Assembly (NCBI GenBank): GCA_030647005.1
Contig: JAUSKG010000034.1
Coordinates: forward strand, 4,050 to 68,049
DNA from: a bacterium
GTDB taxonomy: Bacteria; Patescibacteriota; Patescibacteriia; JACPHY01
Reading direction: 5' to 3'
DNA: 64,000 nt
A program made the translations under genes and the position numbers. This document shows positions 15,216-63,520 of this stretch, one piece after another; position 1 is the first letter of the stretch, and each line of letters begins with the position of its first letter. Below the pieces are notes generated by a model that saw only the letters and a program-made list of their open reading frames with translations, was not told where the DNA came from and searched no databases.

Positions 15216-15695
15216 GCGTATAGAATTTTTTTCCCGTCCGTCATTGCGAGTCCGCGAAGTGACGCTCCTGCGTCATCTCGAGTGAGGTTTGACGAGCGAG
15301 AGACCCCACACTATCCATGAACCGTGTGAGATCCTTCGGTCGCAGATGCCCTCAGGACGACATCGGAACGTCGTCTCACCAGCAACAATCCCTTGTATCG
15401 TGTGAGATTGCTTCGCGGACTCGCAATGACGACAGAGGAGGTGGGAAGGTATGAGGTGAGCTGGTACAGCGAGCCGAGAGCAATCGGAATAGTACTGTCG
15501 CAAGCACGTCATTCGTCGAGCGAGTGGTAGATGGAGGCCGCGATGACGGAGGAGACCGCTGTGACAAGATGCCACGCCGCAATTTCGATGAGCATAGGTG
15601 ATGTCTCCATCGTAGTGCGGAGGCATGCAAGCGCACCAGTGGATAGCGGAGAAAAAAAGAGTGCACCCCCAACTTACGTTGGGGGTGCGTGGTAC

Positions 15696-36223: not shown

Positions 36224-38893
36224 CTACGGCACGAGCGCGGCAATAACTTTGAGGGGTGCGAGGATGCCGAGCGGTGATGCGGGTGCGTGCTGCTCGCCAG
36301 CGTTTGGTCCTGGACCGGGACCGCCAGCCGGGCCGCGTGCATCCGGTGCATCGAATGAACGCGGGGGCTCGGGGCGACTTCCGTCCCCGCGGCCCTCGAT
36401 GAACCGCTCGAACGGAACCTCGCGGCGCATCTCGACGGGCTGCTGCGGTTCCGATGGACGGAATCCCCGGAGGTCGTCCTTTCGCATACGCGGTTCCGGC
36501 GGGGCGACGAACGAATCAAACTTTTGCGGCTCATCGCCGACGGGTCTCGCCGGAACGGCTGTCTCCACGTCGTGACGCGGTTCCGGTGGGGGGCTCGCGT
36601 CGCCCTCACCCTGTGGTCGGAAGAGCATCGGCTTCCCGTTCGGTCCCATGAGCGGTTGTCCATCAGACCCAACCCCATTGGGACGGAAATCGTTGCCGAA
36701 ACTCGGCCGCCCATCGGGCGTGAACGGCAGGTACGGACGCGACGGATCGTGCGGCTGCTCGCCGGAGAGCTCCTCACGCTTCTCCTCGATGAGCGCGCGG
36801 AATCGCTCCGATGCACCTGGCGACGGCGGGGAAGTGGGGTCCGTACCAAACTGCTCGGGCATGCGCCCCTCGCGGCGAAACTCGGCTTCGAGAGCGCCAT
36901 CGCGCTCCCGGAACTCGAATGGCGGTGCACCGTCGAGCGGCTTTGGTGCGCGATCAAACCCTGGCGTACCAAACGAACCCGGTGCAAACTCCGGCGGCAC
37001 GCCCTCGCCCTCAATCGCGCGGTGGAAATCCTCCCGACGGCGCTTGAACTCCTCCATGGCCTCGGGCGGGAGTCCCATGTCTTCCGGAATATCCCCCTCC
37101 GTACCCTCGAACGCCTCTCGCATCTTCACTTCGAGTTCCATCCGTCGCTCCGCACCCTTCCGCATGAGCTCCTCGCGCTGCTCGCCGATCCTCATGAAGA
37201 ACGATGGATCGCCTGCCTCGAACTGCTGTTTGAGATTCGGGTCAAGCTCAATGGCCTCCTTGATGTGCCCGAGGATCTCGGGATTCTCGAGGTCGTTGAG
37301 GTGCTCCTGGAATCGCTGACGCTGCACCGCGATGGCGCGGTCAATGCCGAGTCCGGGAACGCCGCGCGCACGCAACCCCTCCAGTACTTCGAGCGACTGC
37401 GGGGCGCTCGTGTCCACGAACCGATCGAGGAACTGCTCACCGCCCTCGCGGAACTGACGCTCAAACTGCGCCGTGCCCTCGCGCTCCAATCCCTGGACGA
37501 ACGCGCGCTGCTCCGGCGTGAGTTTCTCCTCCAGTTTCTGCAGCAGGATGAAATCCGTGGGCTCCGGATTCTCGCGGAGCTTCCGCATGAGCTGCTGCGC
37601 TTCACCGGCGACCGCCTCTGCCGCTTCACCCGTTGCGGTCGTCGTACCGGCGAATTGCGCTTTGAACTTTTCGATGGATGTATCTTCACGCCGCTCGATC
37701 TCCGCGCGCACCTCCGGCGGCACGAAATGCTTGAACTGCTCAGCGACACGCACGGCTGTCGTGTCACCCTCCTCGAACCTGCGGAGGAGGTGCTCGCGCG
37801 CACCCTCGCTCGCTCCGGAGAACTCCGTGTTGAACTTCTCCACGGCCTTCGCCTTCATCGCGTCAATCTGTTTGAGGAATGCCGGCGGGAGGTCTCGCGT
37901 CGTGCGCACGTCGTCGAGAATCTCGAAGTGCCGCACCGCATCGCCGGACAAATGTTCAACGTAGTTGCCGAAGCGTTCAGGATCCTCCTCGATCTGCTCA
38001 GCCATGCGGGACACCGCGTGCTCCTGCGCCGCGCGGATGGCCTCGCGGGCCTGCTCCGGCACCTGCTGCTCGAGTTGCTTGAGGACCTCGACGCTCTTGA
38101 AGTTCCTGAACTCGCCACCACGCTGGTTCTCGAGCGCGCGCTCGAATCGCCCGCGGAGGAGCGAGGGATCATCAACGCCGCCCATGACACCTCCCACGTG
38201 CTCGAGGATACCATCGCGACGCTCGGCGATCTGCGCACGGAACTCCTCCGGCGCGTACTCGGCAATGCGCTCCATCGCCTTCTGCTGCGTGAACGAGGTA
38301 TTCGCGACGCGATCGAGGAACCGCTCCACCGCTTCCGGATCGCGATCCTTCCGCTCGCGGAGCTGCTGTGCATCTGCCGCGATCTCCCGCATCCCATCCT
38401 GCGCCTGACGCATGGCACGCTCCACGTCAGCGAACGCACCTGCGTCGCCGCCGCGATCTTCCGCGAGCTTCTGCGCGTCCGCGAGCTCCTGGTTGGCGTA
38501 CTGAAACTTGCGCTCGGCCTTCTTGACCGGATTGAACGTCATCGCGGTCCGAAACCCGCGCCAGAGCCGCTTTGATGCATAGAGCGGGCTGTCCTGGAGC
38601 ACGCGCGCATCCGTAGCACCGAGGTCTGCCGCGCTGACCTCGGCATCGCTCGTCACCGCTTCGGGAATGTCCGCAGTCGCCGCCTCCTCGAGTGCGGCAT
38701 CAACGGCGGCCTCGACCGCTGCGCTCTCATCCGCCGTCTCCGCCGCCGGAGCATCCGGCTCCTGTGCGTGCGCAGGCGGAGCAACCACCGTCAGGCCAAT
38801 AAAAAACGCTACGGCGAGCGTCGTAGCGAAAACGAGGAGCGCGCCCGAACTCGTGTGGAGGCCGCCTGCGTATACGTCGCGAGTTCCCTGCAT
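36224..38893 (-). CDS. DUF5667-like secreted / membrane-anchored helical protein with Pro/Glu-rich C-terminal half
   Basis: N-terminal TM or signal segment, then DSPLYASKRLWRGFRTAMTFNPVKKAERKFQYANQELADAQKL, the DUF5667 signature common in CPR genomes. 889 aa, highly charged, with a Pro-rich tail. Confidence 0.6.
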   Translation of the reverse strand: MQGTRDVYAGGLHTSSGALLVFATTLAVAFFIGLTVVAPPAHAQEPDAPAAETADESAAVEAAVDAALEEAATADIPEAVTSDAEVSAADLGATDARVLQDSPLYASKRLWRGFRTAMTFNPVKKAERKFQYANQELADAQKLAEDRGGDAGAFADVERAMRQAQDGMREIAADAQQLRERKDRDPEAVERFLDRVANTSFTQQKAMERIAEYAPEEFRAQIAERRDGILEHVGGVMGGVDDPSLLRGRFERALENQRGGEFRNFKSVEVLKQLEQQVPEQAREAIRAAQEHAVSRMAEQIEEDPERFGNYVEHLSGDAVRHFEILDDVRTTRDLPPAFLKQIDAMKAKAVEKFNTEFSGASEGAREHLLRRFEEGDTTAVRVAEQFKHFVPPEVRAEIERREDTSIEKFKAQFAGTTTATGEAAEAVAGEAQQLMRKLRENPEPTDFILLQKLEEKLTPEQRAFVQGLEREGTAQFERQFREGGEQFLDRFVDTSAPQSLEVLEGLRARGVPGLGIDRAIAVQRQRFQEHLNDLENPEILGHIKEAIELDPNLKQQFEAGDPSFFMRIGEQREELMRKGAERRMELEVKMREAFEGTEGDIPEDMGLPPEAMEEFKRRREDFHRAIEGEGVPPEFAPGSFGTPGFDRAPKPLDGAPPFEFRERDGALEAEFRREGRMPEQFGTDPTSPPSPGASERFRALIEEKREELSGEQPHDPSRPYLPFTPDGRPSFGNDFRPNGVGSDGQPLMGPNGKPMLFRPQGEGDASPPPEPRHDVETAVPARPVGDEPQKFDSFVAPPEPRMRKDDLRGFRPSEPQQPVEMRREVPFERFIEGRGDGSRPEPPRSFDAPDARGPAGGPGPGPNAGEQHAPASPLGILAPLKVIAALVP

Positions 38894-40545: not shown

Positions 40546-40682
40546 GCGGGCGGGTATAAAACCCGCCCCTACGCCGTTACTTCGGAGGGGAGGAGTTCAT
40601 TCCATCGTCGCGTTATGCGTCTCCGTAGGGGAGGGGTTTACCCCCTCCCATCCGGGCTCCCCCTGAAGCTGGCGCGGGAGCG
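40546..40682 (-). repeat. composite repeat: GCGGGTATAAAACCCGC hairpin + GGGAGGGGGTAAACCCCTCCC hairpin + 26-nt repeat, reverse orientation; overlaps the 3' end of the giant ORF
   Basis: The same ordered pair of hairpins recurs at 60682..60784. The 26-nt element lies at 40661..40682. Confidence 0.5.
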
Positions 40683-43600
40683 TCAAAGAACGCGCGATGT
40701 CGGCCCATGCGGATGGGATGATGGCGGTGATGCCGACTGATTCCGGTGCGTCTGCGACCGCTACGACATCCGTCTCGCGGGCATCGGAGGTTTTGGGGGA
40801 TGACGGCTCCACGATGATCTGCACGGTGTCCGCCGCTGATGCGCCACCGTTGTCCACGACTTCGAGGATGACGGACGTCGTTCCAATCGGCGCGGCGTAC
40901 TCCAGCTGCGCGCCGGAGCCGATGTACTCCCGACCGACGCGCCAGCGCAAGCGCGCGATGGACCCGTCTGCATCACGCGAGCGCGATCCATCGAGGGTGA
41001 CGGTGACCACTCCGTCGCCATCGTCATCGCGCACGGTTTGATCTTCGCCCGCGTGTGCAACCGGCATCGTATTGAGCCCAACCATGCTGCGCCAGGCACT
41101 CAGCACCGCGCGGTTGTTCAGCTCATCGAGCTCCGCGATGGCATCGTTCGGGTCAACGGTGAGCTCGAGGATCGCCGCGCCTTCCGGTGGGGTGGTCGCG
41201 TAGACGCCGAGCGGCCGCGGGAGGCCGACGGTGTCCGGAATCGCGGACGTCATCTGGAACCGCCAGTCCGGTTCGAGGGCATCCTGCGTGCGCAGGTAGT
41301 GCTGCCCAAGCGGCAGCCCGCTCCCACCCCGCCACTGGAGCCGCCAGGTGAACGCGGGACTGATCACACCACCGCGATTCGTGAGGATGATGCGGAGCGC
41401 GCCGCTCTCGTCCACGCTGAGGTCGAGGATGGCAAGATCCACCGGACGATCCGGCTCGAACACCGCGAGCGTCGTGCGGGCCTGTGCCTCCCGCCCGTCG
41501 GCATCGCGTACCTGCACGGTGGCGGCAATGAGCCCGCCGGCATCGAACCGACGCTGGATGGTCGGCGAAGCACCAACGACGCCGTCTGCAAAACGCCAGG
41601 AGACCGTGTACGGCTTGCGACCGCCGGTGATCGCCGCGTGGTAGGTTGCGGAGAGCGGCGCGGGACCGGATGCCGGATCAACCGTCGCCGTCACCGCGAG
41701 CGGCGCGACGCGCACCACCGGCGTGCGCTCCGCGACTGGCGCGATATCCGGTGTGATGACTCCTGCCTCCTTCGGGCTGCTCGGTTCCTCAGGCACATCC
41801 GTCACCAGCTCGGGCTCGTCAACGATGGTCGGCTCGCGTGGAGGCACTGCGGGTTCCGGTATGCGACCCTCGGCCTCCTCGGGAATGGTGATCGTGACGT
41901 CATTGTCGGACTCGTTCACCTCAACAATTGCGTTTGGCCCATCCACGGTGATGAGGAGCTCCACCGCCCCGCTCGGCACGGTGCGCAGGAATTGCGGGAA
42001 GGTCTGCCCCGCGCCGCTCCCACGGTGCGGGAAGAACGTCGCGCCGAGGTCACCTGCGAAGGTAATCGTCTGTGGATCTCCGGGCGCGAACGCTTGCGCG
42101 GGCGCATCGTGCCAGAACCGCACCGCACCTACGGACAGCCCAAGCGTGTCGGTCCAGGTGAACCAGTACGACAACGGTACGCCGATGTCACCGATTGCCG
42201 CGCCATCGTTCACGACCGTGACGGTGACGGCGCGGGCGTCGTCCGCATACGTCGCGGACACGGCGCGAAGGTTGGGGAGCGGCGGCTGCTCCGCCTGCAC
42301 ACTCGCCACCGGAACCGGGAGCGTCGCGACGTTGTTGAGCTCATGCTGCTCGGCAATGCGACCATCACCGTCCGCGACGATGCGCAGGTGTGTGGCGCCC
42401 GCTGGCGGGTGCGCGAGGAATACCGCGAGATTCTCCGTCCGATGTCGCGTGAAGATGAGGAGGAACCGCTCGCGGTAGGTGACGGAGAGTAGGCCGGTCC
42501 CGAGCGACTTCGCATCGCCTGCGGCGAGCGCGTGGAGGGTGAGTGTACGCACCGCACCAAGAGGAACCACACGGTCATCCACCCACGCGAGCTGGAGCGT
42601 GGACGACGGTGCCTCCGCGTCCCCGTCATTGCGCACGACGAACGCGAGCGTACCATCTTCCTCCCACGCTGCGGAGGACAGCAGGAGGTCCGGGAGTGCG
42701 GCCGCACCTACCTGCGTCGCGCCAGTGAGCGCACCGAGTATCGTGCCGACGGTATCCCGCGCGCGCGATGCGATGCGCGTCGCCGTCTCCGCGGGCAGAC
42801 GCGCAATCGTGAGGGTCACCTGTTTGCAGTTGTTCGACTCATCGGACTCCGCGATCTCCTTATTGACATCTATGCACACCTCGAACGCGTGGTTGCCGGA
42901 CGTGGCCTCCCAAGCGTCGGCCCACGTGATGGTTCCTTCCGCCGCCTTCGCGAGCGTCGGGAGTGCCTCCGTGGACGGGAAGGCATCCGGAACACCGTCA
43001 TTGTTCAAATCCACAACCAACCACGCAGTCGTCGCCGCAACATCCGCCGATCCGCTATTCCGGATCGTCGCCGTAAACGACACCGCCTGCCCGGTCATCG
43101 GCACGGCAGGTGACGCAACGACACGCACCATCACGAGGTCCGGCCCGATGGTGACCGGTTCTGGTTCGGGTTCCGGCTCGGGTTCTGGTTCCGGTTCCGG
43201 CTCTGGTGCCACGACCGGGCGCGTGAGCACGCGGGCATTATTCTGCTCGTTGGCTTCTGTCACCGCGTCCTTCGGATCCACCACGATGCGCAACTGCATC
43301 GCGTGCACGGGAGGCGCGGCGATGAAGTTTGCGTAGTATCCGGTCCAACCAATGGTCCCCAGGTCTTTCGCCGCGCCGCGGGAGAGCCCCATGAAGTCCC
43401 GCGTCTCTTCCGCAAGAACGGTGCCATCACGATCGAGCCATGCAATCGTCGCACTCGTACCCACCGTGCGCACGGCACCGTCATTACGCACGACGAGTCG
43501 TAGTCCCGCATCCGTCAGTGCGGCATCGGCAATGGCGAGATCGGCGACCCCGAGCGGCCATCGGTCCGACGTAAGACGATTGTTGTCTTCGCGCTCCTCT

Positions 43601-46600
43601 GCGATCCGGTTGTCCGGGTCCACGATGAGCTCGATACCTGCGGCACCTGTTGGCGGATCGAGCACGTACTCACCAAACGGCCGCGGTGTCCCCGTCCGAT
43701 CACCGACGTCGCTCATCATGGCGTAGAAGCTCCCCGCGCGCTGCGCATCGTGCGGCTGGCGGTACGGTGGTACAGCAATGCGCGCACCGGAGGCGTCCAA
43801 CCACGCGAGCTCCCACGTGTACGCCGGCGCGGGAACTGTTCCCTCCACTTGCATGTTCACGATGAGTCGCTCGTCGTCGGTCACGCTGATGAGATTCGCC
43901 TTGAGATCCGACAGCGGCGCACCGGCAAAGGGAACATCGAAGGTATTGTTCGATTCGTCCGCTTCCGTCAGCTTGCCCGCCGGATCAACCGTAAACCGAA
44001 TCTGCGTTGCACCCGCGGGCGGGTCCTTGAAGAACTGCACCTCGGGGCCGTAGCCGGAGTCCTTGTACGCGAAGAGGAGCTGGTAGCGGTGGAGAAACTG
44101 CTTCTGGAGACCGTCACCGCGACCGATGTACGGCGCGCCAAGGAGCGTACCGGAAGCATCGGCCCACTGCATAGACCAGAAGAACACGGGTGATGCAATC
44201 TCGCCGACGTTGCGGACATCGAGTCCATAGATATCACCGTCGGCATTCGTGAAGAGCTTGGGGACACCGGTGATCGTGAGATCCGGCAGCGCGCTCCGGT
44301 CCGGACGATCGAAGGTCACGCGGTTGTTCTCCTCGTTCTTCTCCGCGATTGCATGATCCGGATCCATCGTCACGCGGAGCGTGCGCGCCGCATCCGGCGG
44401 CGATGCGAGCAGCTCGCCCGCGCGACCCACACCGCGTTCGATGATGATCGAACGGCCACTGCGCGAGGAGAGCTGCGGCCCGTCCACGCGGACCGACGCG
44501 CCCACGACCGTGCCTTCCGCATCGAGCCACGCGAACTCCCACACGAATGCCTGGACGTCCTGCTTCCCCTTGTTCCAGAGCGTCGCCGAGAAGCTGTCCA
44601 TGCCCAGCGCAGGTTCGCCGAACTCGAGATCGGGCTGCTGCACGATGACGAGTGCCGCGCGCGCGGTGTTATTCTGCTCATCGTGCTCGCGGAGCACATG
44701 CTCAGGATCAGCGGTGATCTCCAGCCCGCTCGCGTTCGCTGGCGGATCGGCGAGGAGGCCCGCCAAGGGTGTCTGCTCCTGTGCGAGACCGGTCGCGGTC
44801 CACAGAGGTGACGTGAGCGTGGTGGTTGCTGCGGTGAACGTCCGCGATGCACCAGATGCGAGCGCGGCGGTGTCCAACCAGTACCGACCGTACGAACCGG
44901 CAAAGTGCACTGCGATGCGGATGCGTCCCTCACGATCTCCGGCGGGCGCGTCGCCGACATTCGTCACCGTGAACGTCGCGCCGTCGCGCGTGACGGCAAC
45001 GTCGCGCACAACGAGGTCTGCGAGTTTCCGTCGCGCAGCAACGTCCGCGCTGTTGTTCTCCTCCGAGGACTCCGCGATGGCATTGCCCGCATCAATCGTC
45101 ACGCGGAGTGCCGCAGCCCCCGTCGGCGACAACGCGAGCGAGCGCTCATCGTACCCGTACCCGTCGTAGCGCAAGGTGCGAACTTCGGTGGCCCCGGGGC
45201 TGAGGAAGCCCGTCCCGCGGGTGACGGTCGGCGTGCCGAGTACCCCGCCGGCGGCATCCACCCACTGGAGCGTGAGCGTGGCGGGCGTGGCGCGCGCTGC
45301 ACCACGATTTGCGATGGTGATACGGAACGTGTCGCCGCTCGCCTCGATGCCGGTTGCTGCGGCAACGAGCTGGAGGTCCGGCAGCGGGAGCGGCAGGGTG
45401 ACGATGTTGTGCTCCTCATCCCGCTCGGGAATTGCATCCGTCACATCTGCCGTGATGCGGAGTGCGGTTGCGGTGCTCGGTCGCTGCTGGAGGAACTGCG
45501 CGAGCGATTGGCTCGATGGTTGGGGACGATGATTGGCGTAGGCGAAGGAGAGCATCGTATCGGCCGCGCTCATGCGCGCGGATGTTCCAGGTGCAATGGG
45601 GAGCATCGTGAGGACGCGCTCGCCGCCGGGAATGGGAGTGCCGCTGCCGTCCAGCCAGAGGAGGCCGACGGAGACATCACCGCCCGTGATGCCCGGCCCA
45701 TCGTTCACCACCGCGAACGTGAGCGATGCATCCACGAGGTGCGCGTCCGCAATGCGGAGATCGGCGCGCGGACGTTCGAGGAGCACCGCGTTGTTCCCGT
45801 CGTTCGTCTCGCGAATCACATGGTCCGGATCGAGCGTGAGGTGGAGGTGCGTCGCATCGCGCGGTGGCATCCGGAGCACCTCGGTGAGGGCGATCGTCGA
45901 GACCTGCGTGCGACCCCACCACCCGCCCCGGAACTCGTACGACACCTGCACATCACGCGCATGGAGTGTGATGCGTCCACCCGCGACGATCGGCGCGAGG
46001 TCCACGAAGTAGCGCTGGCCCGTCGCCTGCCGATCTGCCGTGCGCCACACGATGTCCGCGCGCACGCGCGCGCCATCCGTTGCGCCTGCGCCGTCATTCT
46101 GCACGGTGAAGACGAGATCGTCCGCGGTGAGCGATGCACCCACGATGGTGAGGTCTGCGAGTGCGGATGGTTGCGGCGGGGGCGGCGGGAGCGCGGGTGC
46201 GTCGAGCACCGCGATGTTGTTCAACTCATCGGACTCGTCGAGCGTCCCTGCGCTGTCGAGTGCGACCCGAAGGAATGCCGCGCCATCCGGTCGGTCGGTG
46301 AGGAACGCGGCGAGCGACTGTGTCTCCATGCTCCGGAGCAGACCGCTCCGGTAGGATACCGTGGACGTTGCCGAAGAGATGCCGGTCGTCGCACCGGCAT
46401 CGAGTGCGGGGTACGCGATGGAGCGTGGGGAACCGAGCGGTTGGCGTTCCCCGTCCAACCACTGGAATGCGACGTGGAATGCACTCCCGATGCGCGTCGT
46501 GCCGATGTTGGAGACCCGTGCCGCAAACGCACCGGCATCACCGCCGACAAAACCCGCTTCCGTGATGGCGAGGTCGGGGAGCGGGAGGTGCACGACCGCC

Positions 46601-48618
46601 GCGTTGTCGTCTCGTGTCTCCTCGAGGAGTACCGCACCCGCATCGAGCGCGATGCGAAACTGCGTCGCGCCCGCCGGACGGTTGACGAGGTACGTCGCGA
46701 GCGGTTCATCGTGTGCAGTCGAGAACATGCGACCGGTGGTGTAGGACGCGACGGCGTGCGCGGAGCGTAGGGTGACCCGCTCGAACGGCGCAACGTGTTC
46801 CACCGCAATGGAGCGCGGCGCACCGAGGCGCCCACCCGCAGCGTCGAGCCACTGGAGCTCGATGGCAAACGGCGTCATGATGACGGTCGCGCTGGTGTTG
46901 TGGTACGAAAAGGTGAGCGCGCCATCGGCAATGGTGGGTGCGATGATCTGGAGATTGGGGAGTGCAAACGGGATCGCAAGCGTATTGTTCTCCTCGTTCG
47001 CCTCGGCAATCGCACCTCCTTCGTCAAGGACCATCTGGAGCAGGGTTGCATCCGCCGGACGATCGGCGAGAAACGCGCTCAGCAACAACGGCTCCGCGCG
47101 CTTGAACATGCGCCCACGCGTCCGCTCGACGGTCGTTGTTGCCGCGTCCACAAACGTGGAGGAGCCGGCAGCACTGCCGACGCGCACCATCGCAACGGCA
47201 TCCTGCACCGCACCCTCCGCGTTCACCCATTGGAACAGTACTTGGTACGCATCAGCAATCGTACCGCCGACGTTGCGGTACACCATCATCGCACGTTCCG
47301 GCGTGATGTCGTAGGACTCAGCAATGAGATCGGGCTGTGGTTCGGGTTCCGGCTCAGACACATCCTCTGGTGGTGGCGCAATCGGCTCGCCATCCTCAGG
47401 AGGGAGGAGCACGACGTCATCGGGCGTTTCCAAAAGAGGTGGCGACACCACAACCGGCACGTCTTCAGGCGCGGCAACGATCTCCGGCCCGCAGCTGCAA
47501 CAGAACAACCCATCGCTGCCATTGCGCGTCGTGATGGTGTGCAGGGTGCCACACGCCTGCGCACACTGATCGTAGGAGGTAAACTCGTCCGGTTCGCACG
47601 CAACGACGCACGCGTAGCACGTCGCCGCGGTCGTCGCGTCACGAACGCAACGCTCGTTCGCGTCACCGCACATTCCACCACAAGTATCATTGGTGAATCC
47701 CGGGCACGATGGTGCTTGTGGCACTTCCGATGGCGACACCGGAACGGGAGTGACGGTCGGCGTACCGCTTGCCGGACGCAATCGCGCAGCGACCCGTCCA
47801 AAAAAACCACGCGGCGGATCGGGAGCCGGCACGGCAACACCGACGAATGCCGGGGCTGCTGCTTCCACTCCCGGGGCCGCAACCGCATCGGGGACGGATG
47901 GTGCCGGAGCAAAAGCATCCTGTTCTGGCACGCCCGAGACAACAGGGATCGTGCGTTCGAGCACTCGCTCGGGAGCGGGTGTCACCACCGGCACCGCATC
48001 AACTCCACCACTCGATACGCGCGCAGGCGGAGCGAACGGAGCTGGCGTGGAGACGGGGACGGGAACCGGCGCGGGTGGCGCGGTCGCGGTGGGTGCGGAT
48101 TCCGGTTGCGCAAGAGCCGGTGTTGGCACGGATGCGAGACGATCGAGAATCTGTTCGGCGATGACCGAGCGATCCGCATCGCCGCCCTGTTCCGGTGCGG
48201 TGAGCTGCGCCGCGATGGACGTAAACACCCGGGTCTGCTGCGCGAGCTGCGTCGTCACCGCCGCATCAATCGCATCGGCGGTGCCATCCACTCCCGATAC
48301 ATCGGCCTGCTCCTGCGCGAGCTGCACATATCGCTGCGCGATCACCTGCACGACGAGCACACGCTCCGGTGCGCGCTCCGCGATCACCTGCGCCTCCTCC
48401 ACCTTCTCCTGTGCGTAGCGGAGCGCACGCGCGGCCTTCTTCTCCGGATTGATCGTCAGCGCGAGCGCGACGCGCTCGAACGTGAGATCGAAGAAATAAA
48501 AACGGCTCGCCGGCGTGAGGCCGGCAGCCGCGTGTGCTGCGCTCGGGACGAGCAATACGAACGCTGCGATGAACGTCAGCACTGCCTGTCGCGCGCGCAC
48601 GACGGTGAGCTTATCCAT
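40597..48618 (-). CDS. giant surface protein (~2670 aa): DUF5667-like N-terminus, Pro-rich and Cys-rich segments, about 14 CARDB-like repeats, (PE)n linker, PKD-like domains
   Basis: Start MDKLTVVRARQAVLTFIAAFVLLVPSAAHAA (signal/TM) then TINPEKKAARALRYAQEKVEEAQ (DUF5667-like). The Cys cluster is CPGFTNDTCGGMCGDANERC...CYACVVACEPDE. ~110-aa repeats each carry VxNxGxxxA...W.D..G patterns. A PEPEPEPEPEPEPEP linker follows. The PKD-like domain includes TATVDPASGPAPLSATYHAAITGGRKPYTVSWRFADG. The last ~30 codons read through dispersed repeats, so the true stop may be earlier. Confidence 0.75.
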   Translation of the reverse strand: MDKLTVVRARQAVLTFIAAFVLLVPSAAHAAAGLTPASRFYFFDLTFERVALALTINPEKKAARALRYAQEKVEEAQVIAERAPERVLVVQVIAQRYVQLAQEQADVSGVDGTADAIDAAVTTQLAQQTRVFTSIAAQLTAPEQGGDADRSVIAEQILDRLASVPTPALAQPESAPTATAPPAPVPVPVSTPAPFAPPARVSSGGVDAVPVVTPAPERVLERTIPVVSGVPEQDAFAPAPSVPDAVAAPGVEAAAPAFVGVAVPAPDPPRGFFGRVAARLRPASGTPTVTPVPVSPSEVPQAPSCPGFTNDTCGGMCGDANERCVRDATTAATCYACVVACEPDEFTSYDQCAQACGTLHTITTRNGSDGLFCCSCGPEIVAAPEDVPVVVSPPLLETPDDVVLLPPEDGEPIAPPPEDVSEPEPEPQPDLIAESYDITPERAMMVYRNVGGTIADAYQVLFQWVNAEGAVQDAVAMVRVGSAAGSSTFVDAATTTVERTRGRMFKRAEPLLLSAFLADRPADATLLQMVLDEGGAIAEANEENNTLAIPFALPNLQIIAPTIADGALTFSYHNTSATVIMTPFAIELQWLDAAGGRLGAPRSIAVEHVAPFERVTLRSAHAVASYTTGRMFSTAHDEPLATYLVNRPAGATQFRIALDAGAVLLEETRDDNAAVVHLPLPDLAITEAGFVGGDAGAFAARVSNIGTTRIGSAFHVAFQWLDGERQPLGSPRSIAYPALDAGATTGISSATSTVSYRSGLLRSMETQSLAAFLTDRPDGAAFLRVALDSAGTLDESDELNNIAVLDAPALPPPPPQPSALADLTIVGASLTADDLVFTVQNDGAGATDGARVRADIVWRTADRQATGQRYFVDLAPIVAGGRITLHARDVQVSYEFRGGWWGRTQVSTIALTEVLRMPPRDATHLHLTLDPDHVIRETNDGNNAVLLERPRADLRIADAHLVDASLTFAVVNDGPGITGGDVSVGLLWLDGSGTPIPGGERVLTMLPIAPGTSARMSAADTMLSFAYANHRPQPSSQSLAQFLQQRPSTATALRITADVTDAIPERDEEHNIVTLPLPLPDLQLVAAATGIEASGDTFRITIANRGAARATPATLTLQWVDAAGGVLGTPTVTRGTGFLSPGATEVRTLRYDGYGYDERSLALSPTGAAALRVTIDAGNAIAESSEENNSADVAARRKLADLVVRDVAVTRDGATFTVTNVGDAPAGDREGRIRIAVHFAGSYGRYWLDTAALASGASRTFTAATTTLTSPLWTATGLAQEQTPLAGLLADPPANASGLEITADPEHVLREHDEQNNTARAALVIVQQPDLEFGEPALGMDSFSATLWNKGKQDVQAFVWEFAWLDAEGTVVGASVRVDGPQLSSRSGRSIIIERGVGRAGELLASPPDAARTLRVTMDPDHAIAEKNEENNRVTFDRPDRSALPDLTITGVPKLFTNADGDIYGLDVRNVGEIASPVFFWSMQWADASGTLLGAPYIGRGDGLQKQFLHRYQLLFAYKDSGYGPEVQFFKDPPAGATQIRFTVDPAGKLTEADESNNTFDVPFAGAPLSDLKANLISVTDDERLIVNMQVEGTVPAPAYTWELAWLDASGARIAVPPYRQPHDAQRAGSFYAMMSDVGDRTGTPRPFGEYVLDPPTGAAGIELIVDPDNRIAEEREDNNRLTSDRWPLGVADLAIADAALTDAGLRLVVRNDGAVRTVGTSATIAWLDRDGTVLAEETRDFMGLSRGAAKDLGTIGWTGYYANFIAAPPVHAMQLRIVVDPKDAVTEANEQNNARVLTRPVVAPEPEPEPEPEPEPEPEPVTIGPDLVMVRVVASPAVPMTGQAVSFTATIRNSGSADVAATTAWLVVDLNNDGVPDAFPSTEALPTLAKAAEGTITWADAWEATSGNHAFEVCIDVNKEIAESDESNNCKQVTLTIARLPAETATRIASRARDTVGTILGALTGATQVGAAALPDLLLSSAAWEEDGTLAFVVRNDGDAEAPSSTLQLAWVDDRVVPLGAVRTLTLHALAAGDAKSLGTGLLSVTYRERFLLIFTRHRTENLAVFLAHPPAGATHLRIVADGDGRIAEQHELNNVATLPVPVASVQAEQPPLPNLRAVSATYADDARAVTVTVVNDGAAIGDIGVPLSYWFTWTDTLGLSVGAVRFWHDAPAQAFAPGDPQTITFAGDLGATFFPHRGSGAGQTFPQFLRTVPSGAVELLITVDGPNAIVEVNESDNDVTITIPEEAEGRIPEPAVPPREPTIVDEPELVTDVPEEPSSPKEAGVITPDIAPVAERTPVVRVAPLAVTATVDPASGPAPLSATYHAAITGGRKPYTVSWRFADGVVGASPTIQRRFDAGGLIAATVQVRDADGREAQARTTLAVFEPDRPVDLAILDLSVDESGALRIILTNRGGVISPAFTWRLQWRGGSGLPLGQHYLRTQDALEPDWRFQMTSAIPDTVGLPRPLGVYATTPPEGAAILELTVDPNDAIAELDELNNRAVLSAWRSMVGLNTMPVAHAGEDQTVRDDDGDGVVTVTLDGSRSRDADGSIARLRWRVGREYIGSGAQLEYAAPIGTTSVILEVVDNGGASAADTVQIIVEPSSPKTSDARETDVVAVADAPESVGITAIIPSAWADIARSLTLPRQLQGEPGWEGVNPSPTETHNATME

Positions 48619-48637
48619 AGCGTATTTTTCATCTCCA

Positions 48638-49468
48638 TCATAGCACACGCGAGAGAAGAGCGGCGATAATCGTGAGCATGCCGATGACGATGACGAACAC
48701 GCCGAGGTTCACGCGACGGGTGAACGCCATGAACGCGTGGATCGTCGCAATCCCGAACGCAAACGAGGTGAGGAGGCCCCAGAGCAGCGTCGCATCGAAC
48801 GGTGCGCCGTTGCGGAGCAGCACGAGGTTCCCCGCAAACACGATGGGGATGGACATGAGGAACGACAGGCGGAGCGCCTGCTGCCCATCGAACTTCCGGA
48901 GGAGGAGCGCCATGATCGTGAGGCCGGAGCGCGAGAGCCCGGGGAGCACCGCAAATCCCTGCATGACCCCGAGGAGCACCGTGTCGAACAGCGTGATCCG
49001 TTGACGCGGCACCGCCGCGGCCTGCCGCTTGCGCGCGGACAGGAGCATGGCGCCCGTGGCGATGAGGAACACCCCGATCGCACCCACGATCACCCGAATC
49101 GTCGCCGCGCCGCTCGTGGAGCCAATCACCTGGATCGCGCGGCCAAACCCCTCGAGGAGCACGAGCCCGAGCGCACCGGAGATGAGCGTTGTCCCGATGA
49201 GGAACCAGAGCAGGTCTCGAGACGCGCCTCGCTCCCGACGCGTAATGACACGCCCGAGCTCCCGCAGGAGCTCGCCGACATCCCGCCGGAAGTACACGAT
49301 GGCCGCAACCATCGTCCCAAAGTGGAGCATGAGTGCCACGTCAATGGACTCCCGCACATCCGTGTGGCCAAAGAGCACCGTGCGCGCGAGCACGATCATC
49401 CCGTCCGAGGAGATCGTGATCCACTCCGTCATTCCCTGAATGGCACCGAGCACGAGTGCTTCGAGCAT
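48638..49468 (-). CDS. uppP: undecaprenyl-diphosphate phosphatase (BacA/UppP)
   Basis: GAIQGMTEWITISSDGM and PGLSRSG motifs are present. 276 aa with 8 TM helices. Confidence 0.9.
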   Translation of the reverse strand: MLEALVLGAIQGMTEWITISSDGMIVLARTVLFGHTDVRESIDVALMLHFGTMVAAIVYFRRDVGELLRELGRVITRRERGASRDLLWFLIGTTLISGALGLVLLEGFGRAIQVIGSTSGAATIRVIVGAIGVFLIATGAMLLSARKRQAAAVPRQRITLFDTVLLGVMQGFAVLPGLSRSGLTIMALLLRKFDGQQALRLSFLMSIPIVFAGNLVLLRNGAPFDATLLWGLLTSFAFGIATIHAFMAFTRRVNLGVFVIVIGMLTIIAALLSRVL

Positions 49469-49523: not shown

Positions 49524-49675
49524 GTCATTTCGAGCGGAGTGAGCGCGCGGGCGAACGAAGCCGAGAAATCTCACGTTCTATGGGAAAACTTCACACCAGA
49601 GAGATCTCTCCGCTCTCTGTTGCGGAGCCTGCCCTGAGCGAGTCCGCGAGTCGAACGGGGTCGAGATGACGAAAC
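49524..49675. repeat. palindromic element of the TCATTTCGAG subfamily (intergenic, 152 nt)
   Basis: GTCATTTCGAGCGGAGTGAGCG...GAGAAATCTC...GAGATCTCTC...GGTCGAGATGACGAAAC. Its termini are related to the GTCATTGCGAG family. Confidence 0.7.
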
Positions 49676-55772: not shown

Positions 55773-57133
55773 TCACGGAGAGAATTCACGCGTAGGCACA
55801 AGCGGGAGCGTGCCGAGGGCGAGGAGGGTCCAGAACTGGATGGCGAGGTCGTTCTTGAATGTGGGGATGTCCACGAGGCCGAAGATGAGCAGTGCACACA
55901 TCGCTGCGATGATGGACGCGGAGCGCCACGTTGCGAACGCGCGGGTGAAGAACACGATGAGGAGCACGAGGAAGATGAGGAGCCCGAGGAGCCCGAGCTC
56001 TGACCACACGGCGAGGAGGAGATTATGCGGATACACGAACGTCTCGACATCCTGCTTCTCCTTGTACTGCTGGATGGCGATGGGGTAGCCAGCGAGTCCG
56101 GCACCGCGGACGGGATGGTCGGCAAGGAGCCCCCACATCTCGCGGTACTGCGAGAGCCGCACGCTGCCAGACCACTGCTGGAACGTGAGCTTCTGCCACA
56201 CCGTACTCCCGTCCCGCGGCCGCTCGGGCTGGAACGGCAGCCATGCGGTGATGAGGAGGCACGCCGCAACCCACCCAACGACAATCGTCACCGCAATCCC
56301 GCGCGCATGTCGCGCGACGAACGACTTCCACACTTTGAACGCGACGAGCGCGATGAAGCCCGCGACGACCGCAACCATTGCCCCCGCGCCTCTCGTGAAG
56401 AACACCGCCGCAATCGCCGCGATGCCGACGAGGAACAGGAAGATGAGCGCGAGCACGGAGTGCACGATGCTCTGTTCCCCCACCTCTTCTAGAGGGGGGG
56501 TGTTCGCCGCCGCGTAATCGCCACCATCCCGAACGCGAGCGGCACGAGCGGCGCGAGGTACAACCCCACCGCATTCGGGTATCCGAACACGCTCGTCACG
56601 CGCCGCGTCGCGACATCGAACCACGGGAACGGAATCCCGTAGCCGCTCCAGTGCTGCCAGATCGCCACTCCCGCAACGCCCGCTGCGCCAACGAGGATCG
56701 GCAATACGATGGTGCGGAGCGGACTGAAAATGTTGAGTGCCCGAATCACAAAATACGCCAACACCGGCTCCACGATGTACGCCTTCCAGATACCCCACGC
56801 CGCCGCCCCCGCATCCGACCACATCGCCGCGAGCAACCCCGCGACAACCCAGAGCACCGCGAGCACGACCATGCGATCCGCAAACGGCGACGCCGCCGCT
56901 ATAGTCCTCCCCCTCATCTTGAGGGGGAGCGAGAGGGGGTGTCCCCCCCGCCCACACCCCAGCACCACCACCGCCAATACCAACACCATTCCTTCCAACA
57001 GCGTCATCGGAATCCCAAGCACCTCGAACCGCACGAGGTACGTCGGCAGCAACGCGAGGAGTACCCCGAGTGCAAGACGGGGGCGATACCAGGCAACAGC
57101 GGCGTAGGGGAGGAGCGCGAGGGCGTAGGGCAT
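55773..57133 (-). pseudogene. O-antigen ligase / Wzy_C-family membrane protein split by a -1 frameshift in a G7 homopolymer (possible phase-variable gene or sequencing error)
   Basis: The N-terminal half (frame A, 56489..57133) ends ...GMVAITRRRTPPL*. The C-terminal half (frame B) has the Wzy_C/WaaL signature RLSQYREMWGLLADHPVRGAGLAGYPI...YPHNLLLAVWSELGLLGLL. The two frames meet at the tract GGGGGGG 56495..56501. Adding one G would fuse them into a single ~450-aa ORF. Start ATG is 1 nt after the upstream flippase stop. Confidence 0.6.
56907..56942. repeat. 36-nt dispersed repeat copy 3 (inside the N-terminal part of the O-antigen ligase-like gene, encoding HPLSLPLKMRG)
   Basis: Identical, bar one G, to copy 1 at 8927..8963. 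Confidence 0.55.
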
Positions 57134-57134
57134 A

Positions 57135-58673
57135 CTACGACGCGCGGAACGCGACGACCATCCGGCGCGTCCATGGAATAAGGAGTACGGCCGCACCGTA
57201 CGCGATCACCCCGAGTGCTACGCGCGGGATGATGTGCCACGCGGGAACCGCGAGGACGGCGAGCGCCATGAGACCGGAGGCGAGGAGCGCGGCGACGGGG
57301 ATGCGGAGGTCCAGGCGCACTGCGGACGTACGGCGCACGACGGCGAACGTCGCAACGGCGATAGCGATCTCGGACGCGACGGTCATCCACGCAGCGCCCC
57401 AGTACGAGTAGCGCGGGATGAAGACGAAGTAGCCGATGAGCGTGACCGCGGCCACTGCAGCGTACCCCCAGAGCATCGCACGCTGCCGCTCGAGCGCGAC
57501 GATCGCGTAGCCGAACGGCTGGCCGAGGAAGATGCCCAGGAGCGCGAGCGACAGCACGCCGAGAATCGGACCGGACACCGCGAAGTCGCTCCCCGCCACG
57601 AACGCCATGATCGGCGTGCCCAGTGCCAGGGCACCCGCGGCGAGCGGGAATCCGAGGAACGCGAGCCCGTCGAACACGCGCTGGAGGCGATGCCGGAACG
57701 CCGCGCGATCACCCGTTGCCCACGCCGCCGCGAGGAGCGGGAGCACGAGCCCCATGACGAGGTGCGGGAACTGCGTGACGACATCGAGGAGGCGGTACGG
57801 CGCGGCGTAGATGCCCACCTCCTCCTCCGGCCGCACGAACGAGAGGATGACGGTGTCCGCGCGGAGGTAGACGAGGTTGAAGATGATGGAGAGCGCGACG
57901 GGCCAGCTCTTCGTCAGGATGCGCTTCCAGAGCGGGAAGTCGAACGCGAGCCGGACGCGCACGATGCGCTGCGCGGCGATGAACGTGATGGCGAACATCG
58001 CAACGTTGCCGATGACCGTCGCCCACACCATCGGGAGGATACCCATCCCCCGCCACGCGGCGAACGCGACGCCCGCCGTGAGCAGCGCGCGACCCGCGAC
58101 ATCCGCGATAGCCGGCCAGACCATCCGCTGCGCCACCTGGAACGGTGCCAAGAGAATCTGGTGGAGCACGATGCCGAGGAACGAGAACGTCGCCGCCGCG
58201 ATGCCGACGCGCACCACGGGATCGTACACGGGAATGACGAAAGCCACCGCCGCAGCCGCCGCGAACACCACAACCGCCACGGTGAGGCGCATGGTGAAGA
58301 TGTTGGAGAGCAGGACCGCTCGTTCGTCATTTCGACCGAGCGAATCCGATGCGGTCGCGGAGAAACCTCGTTCCGCCGCGGAGATCTCTCGACTCGAATA
58401 CTCGCTCGAGATGACGAAAGAAGAGGAATCACTCGCTCGAGATGACGAGGAGGAGAGCCGTCCCAACTCGCTCGGCGCGAGGACATTCAACCCCAAATCC
58501 ACCGCAACGCCGAAGAGCTGGAGATATGCCATGATCGTGGCGTACTTCCCGTACCCCGCGAGGCCGAGCGCGCGCGTGATAATCGCGATCGCCGCTACCC
58601 CAAACGCAATCCCCGCGAGCTTCCCCGCGAGCTGGATGCCGGACTGCGAAATGATCCGCCGTGTCATGGTCAT
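57135..58673 (-). CDS. Wzx-like oligosaccharide flippase / polysaccharide biosynthesis protein (MOP superfamily) with Ser-rich in-frame insertion
   Basis: 512 aa with ~14 TM helices and flippase-like composition. An inserted ~45-aa Ser-rich segment SSSSSRASDSSSFVISSEYSSREISAAERGFSATASDSLGRNDER is encoded by a TCATTTCGAG-subfamily palindromic element. Confidence 0.6.
   Translation of the reverse strand: MTMTRRIISQSGIQLAGKLAGIAFGVAAIAIITRALGLAGYGKYATIMAYLQLFGVAVDLGLNVLAPSELGRLSSSSSRASDSSSFVISSEYSSREISAAERGFSATASDSLGRNDERAVLLSNIFTMRLTVAVVVFAAAAAVAFVIPVYDPVVRVGIAAATFSFLGIVLHQILLAPFQVAQRMVWPAIADVAGRALLTAGVAFAAWRGMGILPMVWATVIGNVAMFAITFIAAQRIVRVRLAFDFPLWKRILTKSWPVALSIIFNLVYLRADTVILSFVRPEEEVGIYAAPYRLLDVVTQFPHLVMGLVLPLLAAAWATGDRAAFRHRLQRVFDGLAFLGFPLAAGALALGTPIMAFVAGSDFAVSGPILGVLSLALLGIFLGQPFGYAIVALERQRAMLWGYAAVAAVTLIGYFVFIPRYSYWGAAWMTVASEIAIAVATFAVVRRTSAVRLDLRIPVAALLASGLMALAVLAVPAWHIIPRVALGVIAYGAAVLLIPWTRRMVVAFRAS
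58314..58408. repeat. TCATTTCGAG-subfamily palindromic element inserted in frame in the flippase gene
   Basis: GTCATTTCGACCGAGCGAATCCG...GAGAAACCTC...GAGATCTCTC...CGCTCGAGATGACGAAAG. Same architecture as the intergenic copy 49524..49675. A second partial right terminus lies at 58418..58441. Confidence 0.65.
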
Positions 58674-60681: not shown

Positions 60682-60784
60682 GGGAGGGGGTAAACCCCTC
60701 CCCTACGGGGTACGCGCAACGCAAGGAGGATGAGATGCCCAATCGCCACGGGAATCGCGTAGGGGCGGGTTTTATACCCGCCCG
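60682..60784 (+). repeat. composite hairpin repeat copy (GGGAGGGGGTAAACCCCTCCCCTACGG ... GCGTAGGGGCGGGTTTTATACCCGCCCG)
   Basis: Same two hairpins in the same order as the reverse-oriented copy at 40546..40650. Confidence 0.5.
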
Positions 60785-60833
60785 TCCGGATGGCCCAAAA
60801 ACAGCGTAGGCCTAGGATATTCTATGTGCCTCT

Positions 60834-60867
60834 GTCATTTCTCGCTAGCGGACTCGCTCGAAATGAC
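60834..60867. repeat. mini palindromic element GTCATTTCTCGCTAGCGGACTCGCTCGAAATGAC
   Basis: Carries only the TCATTTC...GAAATGAC termini around a short core. Confidence 0.5.
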
Positions 60868-62549: not shown

Positions 62550-63119
62550 TCACGGGGTGGTCACCGGAGGTGGCGGCATCGCGTCGCTGTGGTGGAACCG
62601 CCGATCAACATCCGCCATCTCCAGGATGAACGTGCGAACCGCGTTGGGGTCGGGGACATCTTCGAGTAAGAACCGCTCGGTTGCAGCGGCGGTCTGCACG
62701 TGGACGTTGCCGTAGTTGAAGAACGTGGGGAACACGCCGCGCACGTCTGTCGTGACGTCCTGCACGCGCCAGAGGTCGAGCTCGGCAACGGTCCGCGCGA
62801 AGAGCCCGTGCTGCTCCATGGAGACGAGCCGATCGTTCGTGATGACCCAGAGGTCCAGCTCGTAGTCAATGAACATCGTGAAGAAGACGAGCCACATCGA
62901 GAGCTCGAACGCGCCAAAACCCAGCACGAGCGCGGGGTACGCCACGGGGTGCGCGAGGATTGCCGGAACGTTCACGCGGAGAAAGACGAACAGCCCGAAG
63001 GGGATCGCGGCGAGCGCGGCCCAGACGATCACGCGCTTGAGGAGCAAGAGCCAGTGCCGCCGGAGCTCGAGGACGCGCGTCTCGTATGCCTTCTGATGGA
63101 TGAGTGTTGAGATGTTCAT
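62550..63119 (-). CDS. membrane protein, possibly bacterial PH (bPH_2/DUF304-like) domain
   Basis: Start MNISTLIHQKAYETRVLELRRHWLLLLKRVIVWAALAAIPFGLFVFL: two TM helices followed by a soluble domain. The track ORF extends into repeat copy G. Its start overlaps the upstream stop (ATGA). Confidence 0.4.
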   Translation of the reverse strand: MNISTLIHQKAYETRVLELRRHWLLLLKRVIVWAALAAIPFGLFVFLRVNVPAILAHPVAYPALVLGFGAFELSMWLVFFTMFIDYELDLWVITNDRLVSMEQHGLFARTVAELDLWRVQDVTTDVRGVFPTFFNYGNVHVQTAAATERFLLEDVPDPNAVRTFILEMADVDRRFHHSDAMPPPPVTTP

Positions 63120-63373
63120 AGCGAGATGCGTGACGGCGCGCGGAGCGTCAGACCCTGGAGCAGTGGCCGTGACCAGTCCACATCGCGCAGGAGCGTGAAC
63201 GTGCCCCACATGACGACGGATACTCCGGCCAGAAAGAGGAAGAGGGCGACGTAGTTGCGCGTGCCATACGTCCCGAACTTCACCATGTGCCAGATCGCGG
63301 CGAGCGCGAGCACGCCGAAGAGTACGAGGAAGCCGTAGAAGAGGTAGAGGAGATGGATGAGGGTGAGGGTCAT
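63116..63373 (-). CDS. small membrane protein, hypothetical
   Basis: Start MTLTLIHLLYLFYGFLVLFGVLALAAIW. ~85 aa. Confidence 0.4.
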   Translation of the reverse strand: MTLTLIHLLYLFYGFLVLFGVLALAAIWHMVKFGTYGTRNYVALFLFLAGVSVVMWGTFTLLRDVDWSRPLLQGLTLRAPSRISL

Positions 63374-63386
63374 AAAACAATCCTGT

Positions 63387-63520
63387 GTCATTGCGAACCG
63401 AGTCCGCGAGGTGTGGCAATCCCGGTCATCAGCAGACCCATCCGACAACAACGGCACGCGCATTCGTCCTGTGATGACCGGGATTGCCGCGTCGCTCGCG
63501 GACTCACTCCTCGCAATGAC
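63387..63520. repeat. MITE-like palindromic element copy G (variant core, as copy E)
   Basis: GTCATTGCGAACCGAGTCCGCGAGGTGTGGCAATCCCGGTCAT-CAGCAGACCCATCCGACAACAACGG...-ATGACCGGGATTGCCGCGTCGCTCGCGGACTCACTCCTCGCAATGAC. Confidence 0.85.

Follow-up and report, generated by a model that had tools for sequence, protein, structure and literature searches.

Why does the gene for a membrane flippase carry a long Ser-rich coding stretch? In the window (the whole 64-kb stretch of DNA analysed, from contig JAUSKG010000034.1), open reading frame (ORF) 57135-58673 on the reverse strand encodes a predicted flippase. An initial annotation had noted in it a Ser-rich stretch of about 45 residues and proposed that this stretch derives from a repeat inserted in frame. 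The stretch is there, at residues 74-118 (17 Ser among 45 residues). The explanation that we hold with considerable confidence is a tolerated and, by prediction, translated in-frame insertion of a non-autonomous palindromic element into the loop between transmembrane (TM) helices 2 and 3.

A Ser-rich insert in a predicted flippase

The ORF is intact (512 residues) and matches the Pfam profiles Polysacc_synt (PF01943, E 4.7e-17, 62.8 bits against a cut-off of 28.2) and Polysacc_synt_3 (PF13440, 54.4 bits, cut-off 23). An identical protein from a metagenome-assembled bacterium is on deposit as 'flippase', and the closest relatives (56-65% identical) carry the annotation Candidatus Uhrbacteria. 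A separate look-up by exact protein sequence returned no record. The hydropathy profile shows 14 hydrophobic peaks, corresponding to 14 predicted TM helices in an N-in topology. An AlphaFold model built on the homologue alignment reached a mean local confidence (pLDDT) of 91.3 and a global score (pTM) of 0.88, and when it was compared with the PDB by Foldseek, it matched MurJ at TM-scores of 0.71-0.77 and WzxE at 0.63/0.77. Profile, topology and fold match thus predict a MOP-fold lipid-linked sugar flippase. The protein resembles the MOP flippases MurJ, Wzx and TacF in its Polysacc_synt signature, its 14 helices with the N-terminus inside and its MurJ/WzxE fold, but differs in an extra, disordered 45-residue segment between TM2 and TM3 that distant homologues and the Pfam profile lack. 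The gene order SpoIID / flippase / Wzy_C is common to the window and the orthologous loci, which supports orthology.

We aligned 24 homologues to place the segment. In the ten that are distant (30-43% identity), only about 9 residues join TM2 to TM3, and to fit the Pfam profile the alignment of the flippase must add about 38 residues at the same site; the stretch is therefore as atypical of MOP flippases as had been suggested. The flanks of the insert are in the same frame and colinear with 13 orthologues. The alignment supports the view that residues 74-118 are an extra segment inserted in the TM2-TM3 loop, and no homologue has an equivalent Ser-rich loop. The proposed insertion at this site stands with one qualification: the close orthologues (13 of 13) also have an extra TM2-TM3 loop, of 14-50 residues, yet these loops are mutually unrelated, none is Ser-rich, and they are made of other hairpin repeats.

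On which side of the membrane does the insert lie? Lys and Arg residues number at least 24 in the even-numbered loops and 5 in the odd-numbered ones. Because this positive-inside bias favours the even-numbered loops, loop 2 (TM2-TM3), which bears the insert, is predicted to be cytoplasmic; the topology prediction that had been called for to place the loop thus gave a definite side. The sole segment of the model with pLDDT below 50 is residues 85-108, and the Ser-rich segment, predicted to be disordered, is probably a floppy loop on the cytoplasmic side. The tryptic peptides predicted within it are ASDSSSFVISSEYSSR, EISAAER and GFSATASDSLGR.

A palindromic element underlies the insert

The DNA motifs quoted in the initial annotation all occur at the insert, with GTCATTTCGA at 58326-58335 and CGCTCGAGATGACGAAAG at 58403-58420. 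The interval assigned to it, 58314-58408, needs revision: the peptide is encoded by 58320-58454, the earlier end point clips the right terminus (58415), and a second copy of that terminus had been missed. The core element (Table 1) is stop-free in the frame of the gene, the remainder of which is intact, and it is bounded by a 21-nt inverted repeat whose outer arms show 86% complementarity. Beyond the core, an 18-nt direct repeat duplicates 58400-58417 at 58431-58448, with the second terminus copy at 58436-58446.

Does the DNA share its architecture with an intergenic element at 49524, as had been claimed? The two copies have the same inner motifs, and the intergenic one has the terminus TCGAGATGAC. 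With the termini held fixed, the similarity of their cores was modest (z 2.0-2.7; reached by 4-12 of 500 shuffles), and we therefore sought independent copies in metagenomes. A scan with a pattern for the left arm (GTCATTTCGAS, 10-40 nt, GAGAAAYCTC) returned at least 120 stretches, and the contigs among the matches listed ranged from 32 to 71% GC. From 45 complete metagenome copies, none of them from the window or its relatives, we built a covariance model, R1, which was run with filters off. R1 matched the flippase copy over its entire length (58326-58415, model positions 1-91 of 91, 52.1 bits, E 4.9e-12) as its top match in the window, and ranked the intergenic copy second. Both are full-length members of one family (E 5e-12 and 2e-10), and the claim of a common architecture survives, though the core similarity is modest. 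Judged by its family termini, its ordered inner motifs, the complementarity rule described below and the top R1 match, the flippase insert is a complete 90-nt member of a widespread palindromic family, and the repeat origin proposed for it is upheld.

Could the segment instead be a home-grown low-complexity Ser linker, expanded by slippage, that resembles the repeat by chance? The internal 18-nt direct repeat and the simple Ser runs would fit such an origin, as would the heptamer tandem repeats found at the site in some orthologues. A full-length match at E 5e-12 to a model blind to this genome effectively refutes it; both termini, both inner motifs and the covariation rule are present as well, and we regard slippage as extremely unlikely.

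Table 1. Coordinates of the flippase gene, its insert, related copies and the corresponding loops of orthologues (window positions unless a locus is named)
Feature	Position	Strand	Basis or remark
Host gene: predicted MOP-superfamily (Polysacc_synt, MurJ/Wzx-like) flippase	57135-58673	-	ORF, Pfam, AlphaFold, Foldseek
Ser-rich peptide SSSSSRASDSSSFVISSEYSSREISAAERGFSATASDSLGRNDER, codons 74-118	58320-58454	-	translation; pLDDT; homologue comparison; K+R sidedness
Core palindromic element, 90 nt = 30 codons, GTCATTTCGA...TCGARATGAC family	58326-58415		covariance model R1; inverted arms
Left terminus GTCATTTCGAC	58326-58336	+	motif search
Left inner motif GAGAAACCTC (family consensus GAGAAAYCTC)	58360-58369	+	motif search, alignment, model R1
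Right inner motif GAGATCTCTC	58381-58390	+	motif search, family alignment
Right terminus CTCGAGATGAC	58405-58415	+	motif search, model R1
Extra 31 nt with second right end; repeat ACTCGCTCGAGATGACGA	58416-58448		direct repeat, spacing 31
Sister copy, 147 nt, intergenic between BacA gene and next ORF	49524-49670		R1 46.7 bits, E 1.6e-10, second in window
In-frame GTCATTGCGAG-subfamily copy in GT2 glycosyltransferase ORF 19458-20312 (+)	19729-19841		R1 33 bits; RNA fold z -9.7
In-frame GTCATTGCGAG-subfamily copy in DUF2079 membrane-protein ORF 24676-26457 (-)	25720-25826		R1 29 bits; RNA fold z -9.0
Wzy_C copies, L003	11675-11769, 12159-12242		in frame
Wzy_C copies, L004	9780-9899, 10098-10217, 10440-10547		in frame
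Wzy_C copies, L007	2745-2831, 3309-3392		in frame
In-frame copy, unrelated contig L022, SecA	1216-1292		
In-frame copy, unrelated contig L119, CCA/poly(A)-polymerase-type	3882-3969		
In-frame copy, unrelated contig L066, KsgA	3532-3607		
In-frame copy, unrelated contig L011, IspG (GcpE)	~3381-3470		
In-frame copy, unrelated contig L087, large polytopic membrane protein	409-481		
Flippase loop, L001	10202-10345		TTCTCCCCYTCC...GGAGGGGGAGCGAGAGGGGG hairpin
Flippase loop, L005	1919-2032		TTCTCCCCYTCC...GGAGGGGGAGCGAGAGGGGG hairpin
Flippase loop, L003	10193-10297		ACGTAGGGGCGG...CCGCCCCTACGT double hairpin
Flippase loop, L004	5879-5983		ACGTAGGGGCGG...CCGCCCCTACGT double hairpin
Flippase loop, L007	535-645		inverted heptamer array
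Flippase loop, L008	3774-3902		inverted heptamer array
Flippase loop, L006	720-794		(CATCCAG)x3
Flippase loop, L002			short, essentially unstructured
Flippase loop, L009			short, essentially unstructured

Terminus and inner motif covary across the family

Elements of the family are 65-190 nt long. The consensus of the 45 copies reads GTCATTTCGA[C/G], a variable GC-rich palindrome, GAGAAATCTC, a loop, GAGATTTCTC, a variable stretch and TCGAAATGAC; in short, the order is GTCATTTCGA, GC-rich palindrome, GAGAAAYCTC, loop, GAGATYTCTC, variable stretch, TCGARATGAC. The right inner motif, GAGAT-XY-CTC, follows a rule: XY is the Watson-Crick complement of a dinucleotide in the right terminus (CG-Y'X'-ATGAC). 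In the alignment the dinucleotide pairs were distributed roughly as TT/AA 30, CT/AG 10, TC/GA 3, CC/GG 2, AT/AT 1 and GT/AC 1. The rule accounts for 17 double-change cells, a number that none of 500 shuffles reached, and if the left arm is paired with the right one instead, wobbles and mismatches fall at exactly these dinucleotides. The flippase and 49524 copies both carry the CT/AG variant, GAGATCTCTC with TCGAGATGAC, a variant shared by 10 of the 45 metagenome sequences. In the GCAAT subfamily the same principle applies, with the terminus CTCGCAATGAC and the inner motif GGGATTGCC. The covariation of terminus and inner motif reads like a guide/cleavage-site relationship, as far as the sequences can tell. 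Within each arm of the elements at loci L018-L128, the 5-nt cores of terminus and inner motif are complementary and covary, in six dinucleotide variants.

A strand asymmetry of G.U wobbles was considered on motif inspection as a hint of RNA function and dropped, as outer and inner mismatches favour opposite strands. Rfam, run on the whole window at gathering thresholds, reported three tRNAs only, and at E <= 0.1 it found only T-boxes in six loci rich in canonical copies; the element is thus not a curated RNA family. [quoted passage not shown] The hairpin-forming repeat family is widespread and apparently undescribed.

Copies in the window and in other genes

How common is the family in the window? 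The 11-mer GTCATYTCGAG, allowing at most one mismatch, occurs 28 times against 3.9 expected, a number reached in none of 100 shuffles. The terminus sites pair into about 10 complete palindromic elements of 107-191 nt, most of which end in GTCATTGCGAG/CTCGCAATGAC; one further element, 49524-49670, is of the TTTCGAG type. With both subfamilies taken together, the window holds 11 copies. The flippase copy had been assigned to a subfamily of its own, and R1 bears this out: the two TTTCGAG-type copies score 52 and 47 bits and the GCAAT-type copies 16-33 bits, which sets them apart from the GTCATTGCGAG copies.

Two elements lie at or near other features of the window. At 15240-15430, just downstream of the tRNA genes 15007-15078 and 15102-15173, lies a composite 191-nt element in which a GTCATCTCGAG-type copy (from 15272) appears nested in a GTCATTGCGAG-type copy. 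The bPH_2-domain ORF 62550-63419 (-) is listed at 289 residues against 190-191 in its orthologues, and its 5' end overlaps the palindromic element 63387-63520; the true start is therefore probably further downstream.

The three in-frame insertions reported for the window were all recovered, the other two lying in a GT2 glycosyltransferase and a DUF2079 membrane protein (Table 1). The Pfam GT2 match ends at residue 86, about 4 residues ahead of the element. When the DNA was folded as RNA in the gene sense, the flippase copy gave z -2.7 and the 49524 copy -2.0, and two control stretches of the flippase gene gave +0.4 and +1.0. The GT2 and DUF2079 copies reach -9.7 and -9.0, and the weak value of the flippase copy beside them indicates that it is a decayed hairpin and presumably an older insertion, later altered by the 31-nt end duplication.

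Are envelope genes preferred, as had been suggested from the three insertions? In the orthologous loci, R1 found 15 copies, 7 in Wzy_C genes and 8 intergenic, and none in any other gene. The Wzy_C genes of L003, L004 and L007 hold two, three and two copies, all in frame, and in the protein alignment the repeat-derived peptides fall in three different loops. The window and eight loci together (164 kb) contain 26 copies; intergenic DNA, 14% of the total, holds 16 of these. Flippase, Wzy_C, GT2 and DUF2079 genes account for all 10 coding copies, which leaves the other 113 kb of coding DNA with none. The envelope gene set, with BacA included, makes up 20% of the coding DNA, which gives a naive p of 1.3e-7 that is overstated, since the copies include at least one orthologous pair and the data were already known when the gene category was picked. 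Elsewhere the same family occurs in frame in metagenomic contigs in SecA (Wing and Scaffold domain), PolyA_pol/CCA, RrnaAD (KsgA) and GcpE (IspG). The enrichment thus holds locally but fails as a property of the family.

Is the element expressed as protein at all? It might be excised from the RNA or bypassed in translation, leaving the protein loop short, in the style of the 'byp' elements of yeast mitochondria; Lang et al. are said to have found, in 2014, that Magnusiomyces mitochondria bypass short, GC-rich insertions of palindromic sequence. The coding copies examined, 10 from the Uhrbacteria loci and 5 from other taxa, are all stop-free in the host frame and keep the frame downstream, both of which would be needless if the copies were skipped. 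We give this possibility next to no credence.

The flippase loop in orthologues

Since close orthologues also carry extra sequence in the loop, we took from nine orthologous loci the loop DNA that is delimited by the conserved anchors DLGLNV and NIFT; an orthologue-alignment search of genome contigs yielded one locus, L006. The loops differ widely in content (Table 1). Besides the R1 type, the repeats encountered include the GCAAT, GGAGGGGGAG and ACGTAGGGGCGG families. The TTCTCCCCYTCC and ACGTAGGGGCGG hairpin types are themselves dispersed and recur, on the same contigs or on related ones, both between genes and within Wzy_C genes, and, the window's own counted, three dispersed palindromic families occupy the TM2-TM3 loop across genomes. 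We considered that the loop type might follow flippase phylogeny, with one insertion per clade, and rejected this, as pairs of flippases 78-82% identical differ in their repeats. This discordance with the flippase tree points to turnover at the site and suggests that the TM2-TM3 loop is an insertion hot spot.

The window itself contains half-copies of the second hairpin family (GCGTAGGGGCGGG...CCCGCCC), which fills the L003 and L004 flippase loops, at about 60757-60800 and at 40548-40575. A 34-nt mini-hairpin with GTCATTTCGAG ends (60834-60867) adjoins the half-copy at 60757-60800.

What keeps hairpins in this loop? A hairpin or loop may be selected at this very position, either as an mRNA structure that slows ribosomes after TM1-TM2 emerge, in aid of membrane targeting, or as a regulatory cytoplasmic linker; lineages would then keep recruiting any available palindrome to the flippase loop. 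Two observations speak for selection at the position: (i) at 7 of 10 sequenced orthologue loci the site has, no more than a few codons away, a strong hairpin (-42 to -79 kcal/mol), from differing families; and (ii) the flippases P0005 and P0008, 82% identical, have different loop repeats, as if a hairpin had been replaced, not lost. On the other hand, the loops of L002, L006 and L009 are short and weakly structured (-18 to -28 kcal/mol), distant homologues have no such loop, and the window copy is a decayed hairpin (z -2.7). Like colonisation of several Wzy_C loops and of unrelated cytosolic enzymes fits tolerance better, and we consider selection at this position unlikely.

A probable tolerated insertion in a permissive loop

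The history that we favour, a tolerated insertion, would run as follows. A non-autonomous palindromic element would have inserted into the DNA for the short cytoplasmic TM2-TM3 loop of a MurJ/Wzx-type flippase, and one of its ends would later have been partly duplicated (31 nt). The decay of its hairpin would make the insertion an old one. The insert would be expressed along with the flippase gene, in mRNA and protein, as a Ser-rich disordered segment, and with its duplicated end it would leave some 40-45 residues dangling in the cytoplasm. The copy would persist because the loop is unconstrained, as selfish DNA tolerated by selection and not as an adaptation. Under the same filter, the family would survive in compact genomes only intergenically and in permissive loops of polytopic envelope proteins, copies at other places within genes would be purged by selection, and this one flippase loop could come to hold hairpin repeats that differ from orthologue to orthologue.

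Several findings weigh against this history. Among close relatives, the search turned up no genome in which the insertion site is empty; the nearest orthologue shares 65% identity, and the ancestral state of the loop is therefore deduced from more distant homologues only. The 31-nt end duplication is not divisible by three, so that further, undetected indels must have preserved the frame. Different hairpin families recur at the exact flippase site in many orthologues, and a hairpin could be selected there, not merely tolerated. The enzyme searches were also unfavourable: Pfam searches of 47 of the 49 window ORFs returned no transposase and one XerC/D-like integrase (12654-13628), and a mobilising enzyme was not found in the window or in the element-bearing loci scanned, which are parts of genomes. 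Finally, the Wzy_C (O-antigen-ligase-like) gene beside the flippase, 55773-57196 (-), breaks into two frames where it has a C7 run (56491-56497), so that decay may have set in at the locus and the flippase might lack selection.

Is the locus, then, decaying or misassembled? The flippase would in that case be an incipient pseudogene or a repeat-induced assembly chimera, and the insert would never have been part of a working protein. The frameshift in the adjoining gene agrees with this, the source is a metagenome-assembled genome, and repeats are classic sites of misassembly. The C7 run of Wzy_C sits in a small hairpin, CCCCCCCTCTAGAAGAGGTGGGGG (56489-56520), and one added C would restore a single ORF of 474 residues that aligns end to end with orthologues; a sequencing error, pseudogene formation or a phase-variable tract may lie behind the split. 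For the flippase itself the signs are otherwise: the flanks are in one frame and colinear with the 13 orthologues, all family-invariant residues are kept, GC content at third codon positions (GC3) across the ORF is 0.86, and, the insert apart, the AlphaFold model has high confidence. In-frame copies also recur in independent assemblies from other samples. We judge decay or misassembly to be highly unlikely.

Mobility and relation to known elements

How might the element move? Direct repeats of at least 3 nt flank 0-1 of 67 metagenome copies, and no target-site duplication was seen at the window copies. In place of a duplication, the palindrome extends by one covarying Y...R pair, complementary in 78% of cases, a level reached in none of 1000 shuffles. 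The 3-kb segment between the inverted arms of L046 encodes SHOCT-domain proteins and no transposase. In tblastn searches of about 839 kb of loci with the element, IS608 TnpA and an Escherichia coli REP-associated tyrosine transposase (RAYT) gave nothing below E 0.2, which is a weak test, and no Y1/RAYT gene turned up in the window. When the 1766 ORFs of 132 such loci were clustered all against all, no gene emerged as a recurrent neighbour. A canonical copy had no BLAST match among plasmids, and a scan of viral contigs for the element returned 12 contigs only; thus there is no sign that plasmids or phages are its main carriers. The absence of duplications and the complementarity of terminus and inner motif favour mobilisation as a single-stranded hairpin, and our guess, by analogy, is that mobilisation occurs in trans, along the lines of REP/RAYT or IS200/IS605.

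HUH Y1 transposases recognise their ends by guide and cleavage-site sequences, an internal sequence pairing with the element end. Like REPs, bacterial interspersed mosaic elements (BIMEs) mobilised by RAYTs, and IS200/IS605 elements, the present family forms hairpins, lacks target-site duplications and has an internal sequence complementary to the element end. It differs from REPs, which are 20-40 nt long and extragenic, in its length of 65-190 nt and its intragenic copies (10 of 26 local ones), and from IS200/IS605, whose ends are not mutual inverted repeats, in that its ends are.

Two further groups invite comparison. As described in PMC10969869 and PMC5896051, bacterial MITEs (Correia, ERIC, Nezha and the Coxiella QMITEs) are small, dispersed elements with inverted ends and occasional in-frame ORF fusions. 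The present family, as far as those descriptions go, is alike in being small, having terminal inverted repeats and no coding capacity, and existing in many dispersed copies, mostly intergenic, with occasional in-frame fusions. In size and ends, the two TTTCGAG-type copies have MITE dimensions, at 90-147 nt (below about 500 bp) with 21-nt arms 86% complementary in the flippase copy, and are too short to encode a transposase. The family differs in the lack of target-site duplication (0-1 of 67 copies) and in its spread over contigs of very unlike base composition. No parent insertion sequence with matching ends was found in the window or the loci scanned, which are parts of genomes.

The closest parallel is with the Rickettsia palindromic elements (RPEs; Ogata et al. 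2000), which PMC10969869 describes as ten families of about 150 bp, often in frame in unrelated genes and compatible with the protein fold. On that description both are multi-copy palindromes of about 100-150 bp that lie in frame in unrelated genes, add a fold-compatible peptide and appear to be tolerated selfish DNA. Here too the frame is kept and the insert is the only low-confidence part of a confident model, with further cases in GT2, DUF2079, Wzy_C, SecA, GcpE, RrnaAD and PolyA_pol. Unlike RPEs, the present family has as hosts CPR/Uhrbacteria and many metagenomic lineages (32-71% GC); its arms are two-tiered, with terminus and inner motif covarying; and in the Uhrbacteria loci its coding copies are confined to polytopic envelope proteins. 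We therefore treat the family as an analogue of RPEs and not a member, likened by description and not by RPE sequence.

Implications

In-frame palindromic selfish DNA is of a kind known from Rickettsia and so far unreported for this bacterial group. If our account holds, the colonisation of genes by such DNA, best known from Rickettsia, would extend to CPR/Uhrbacteria, with their small, tightly packed genomes. Annotators of CPR proteins who meet unusual Ser-rich or 'VISS...RND' segments would be dealing with repeat-derived loops, not functional domains, and the segments would flag insertion-tolerant positions in the host proteins. For evolution, the locus would offer a tractable example of disordered protein segments born from mobile DNA. 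The complementarity of terminus and inner motif is a concrete sequence rule that could point to the mobilisation mechanism.

A bolder reading, which we put forward tentatively and think rather doubtful, is a cross-phylum two-tier hairpin system, with mobility guided by the 5-nt pairing of terminus and inner motif, preferential insertion into existing palindromes, and protein loops as hot spots. If true, such guided mobility would explain both the covariation and the missing target-site duplications. Candidate hot spots would be the flippase TM2-TM3 loop and several loops of Wzy-type proteins, with unrelated hairpin families replacing one another, and essential proteins, in CPR bacteria as in many other lineages, would continually gain new translated loop sequence.

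Other features of the window

Three features lie apart from the element. Between 27946 and 31445 (-), six consecutive ORFs of 122-207 residues each match Pfam T4SS_pilin and form a tandem array of paralogues. A single ORF of 2683 residues occupies 40597-48648 (-), and another large ORF, 36224-38893, contains DUF5667.

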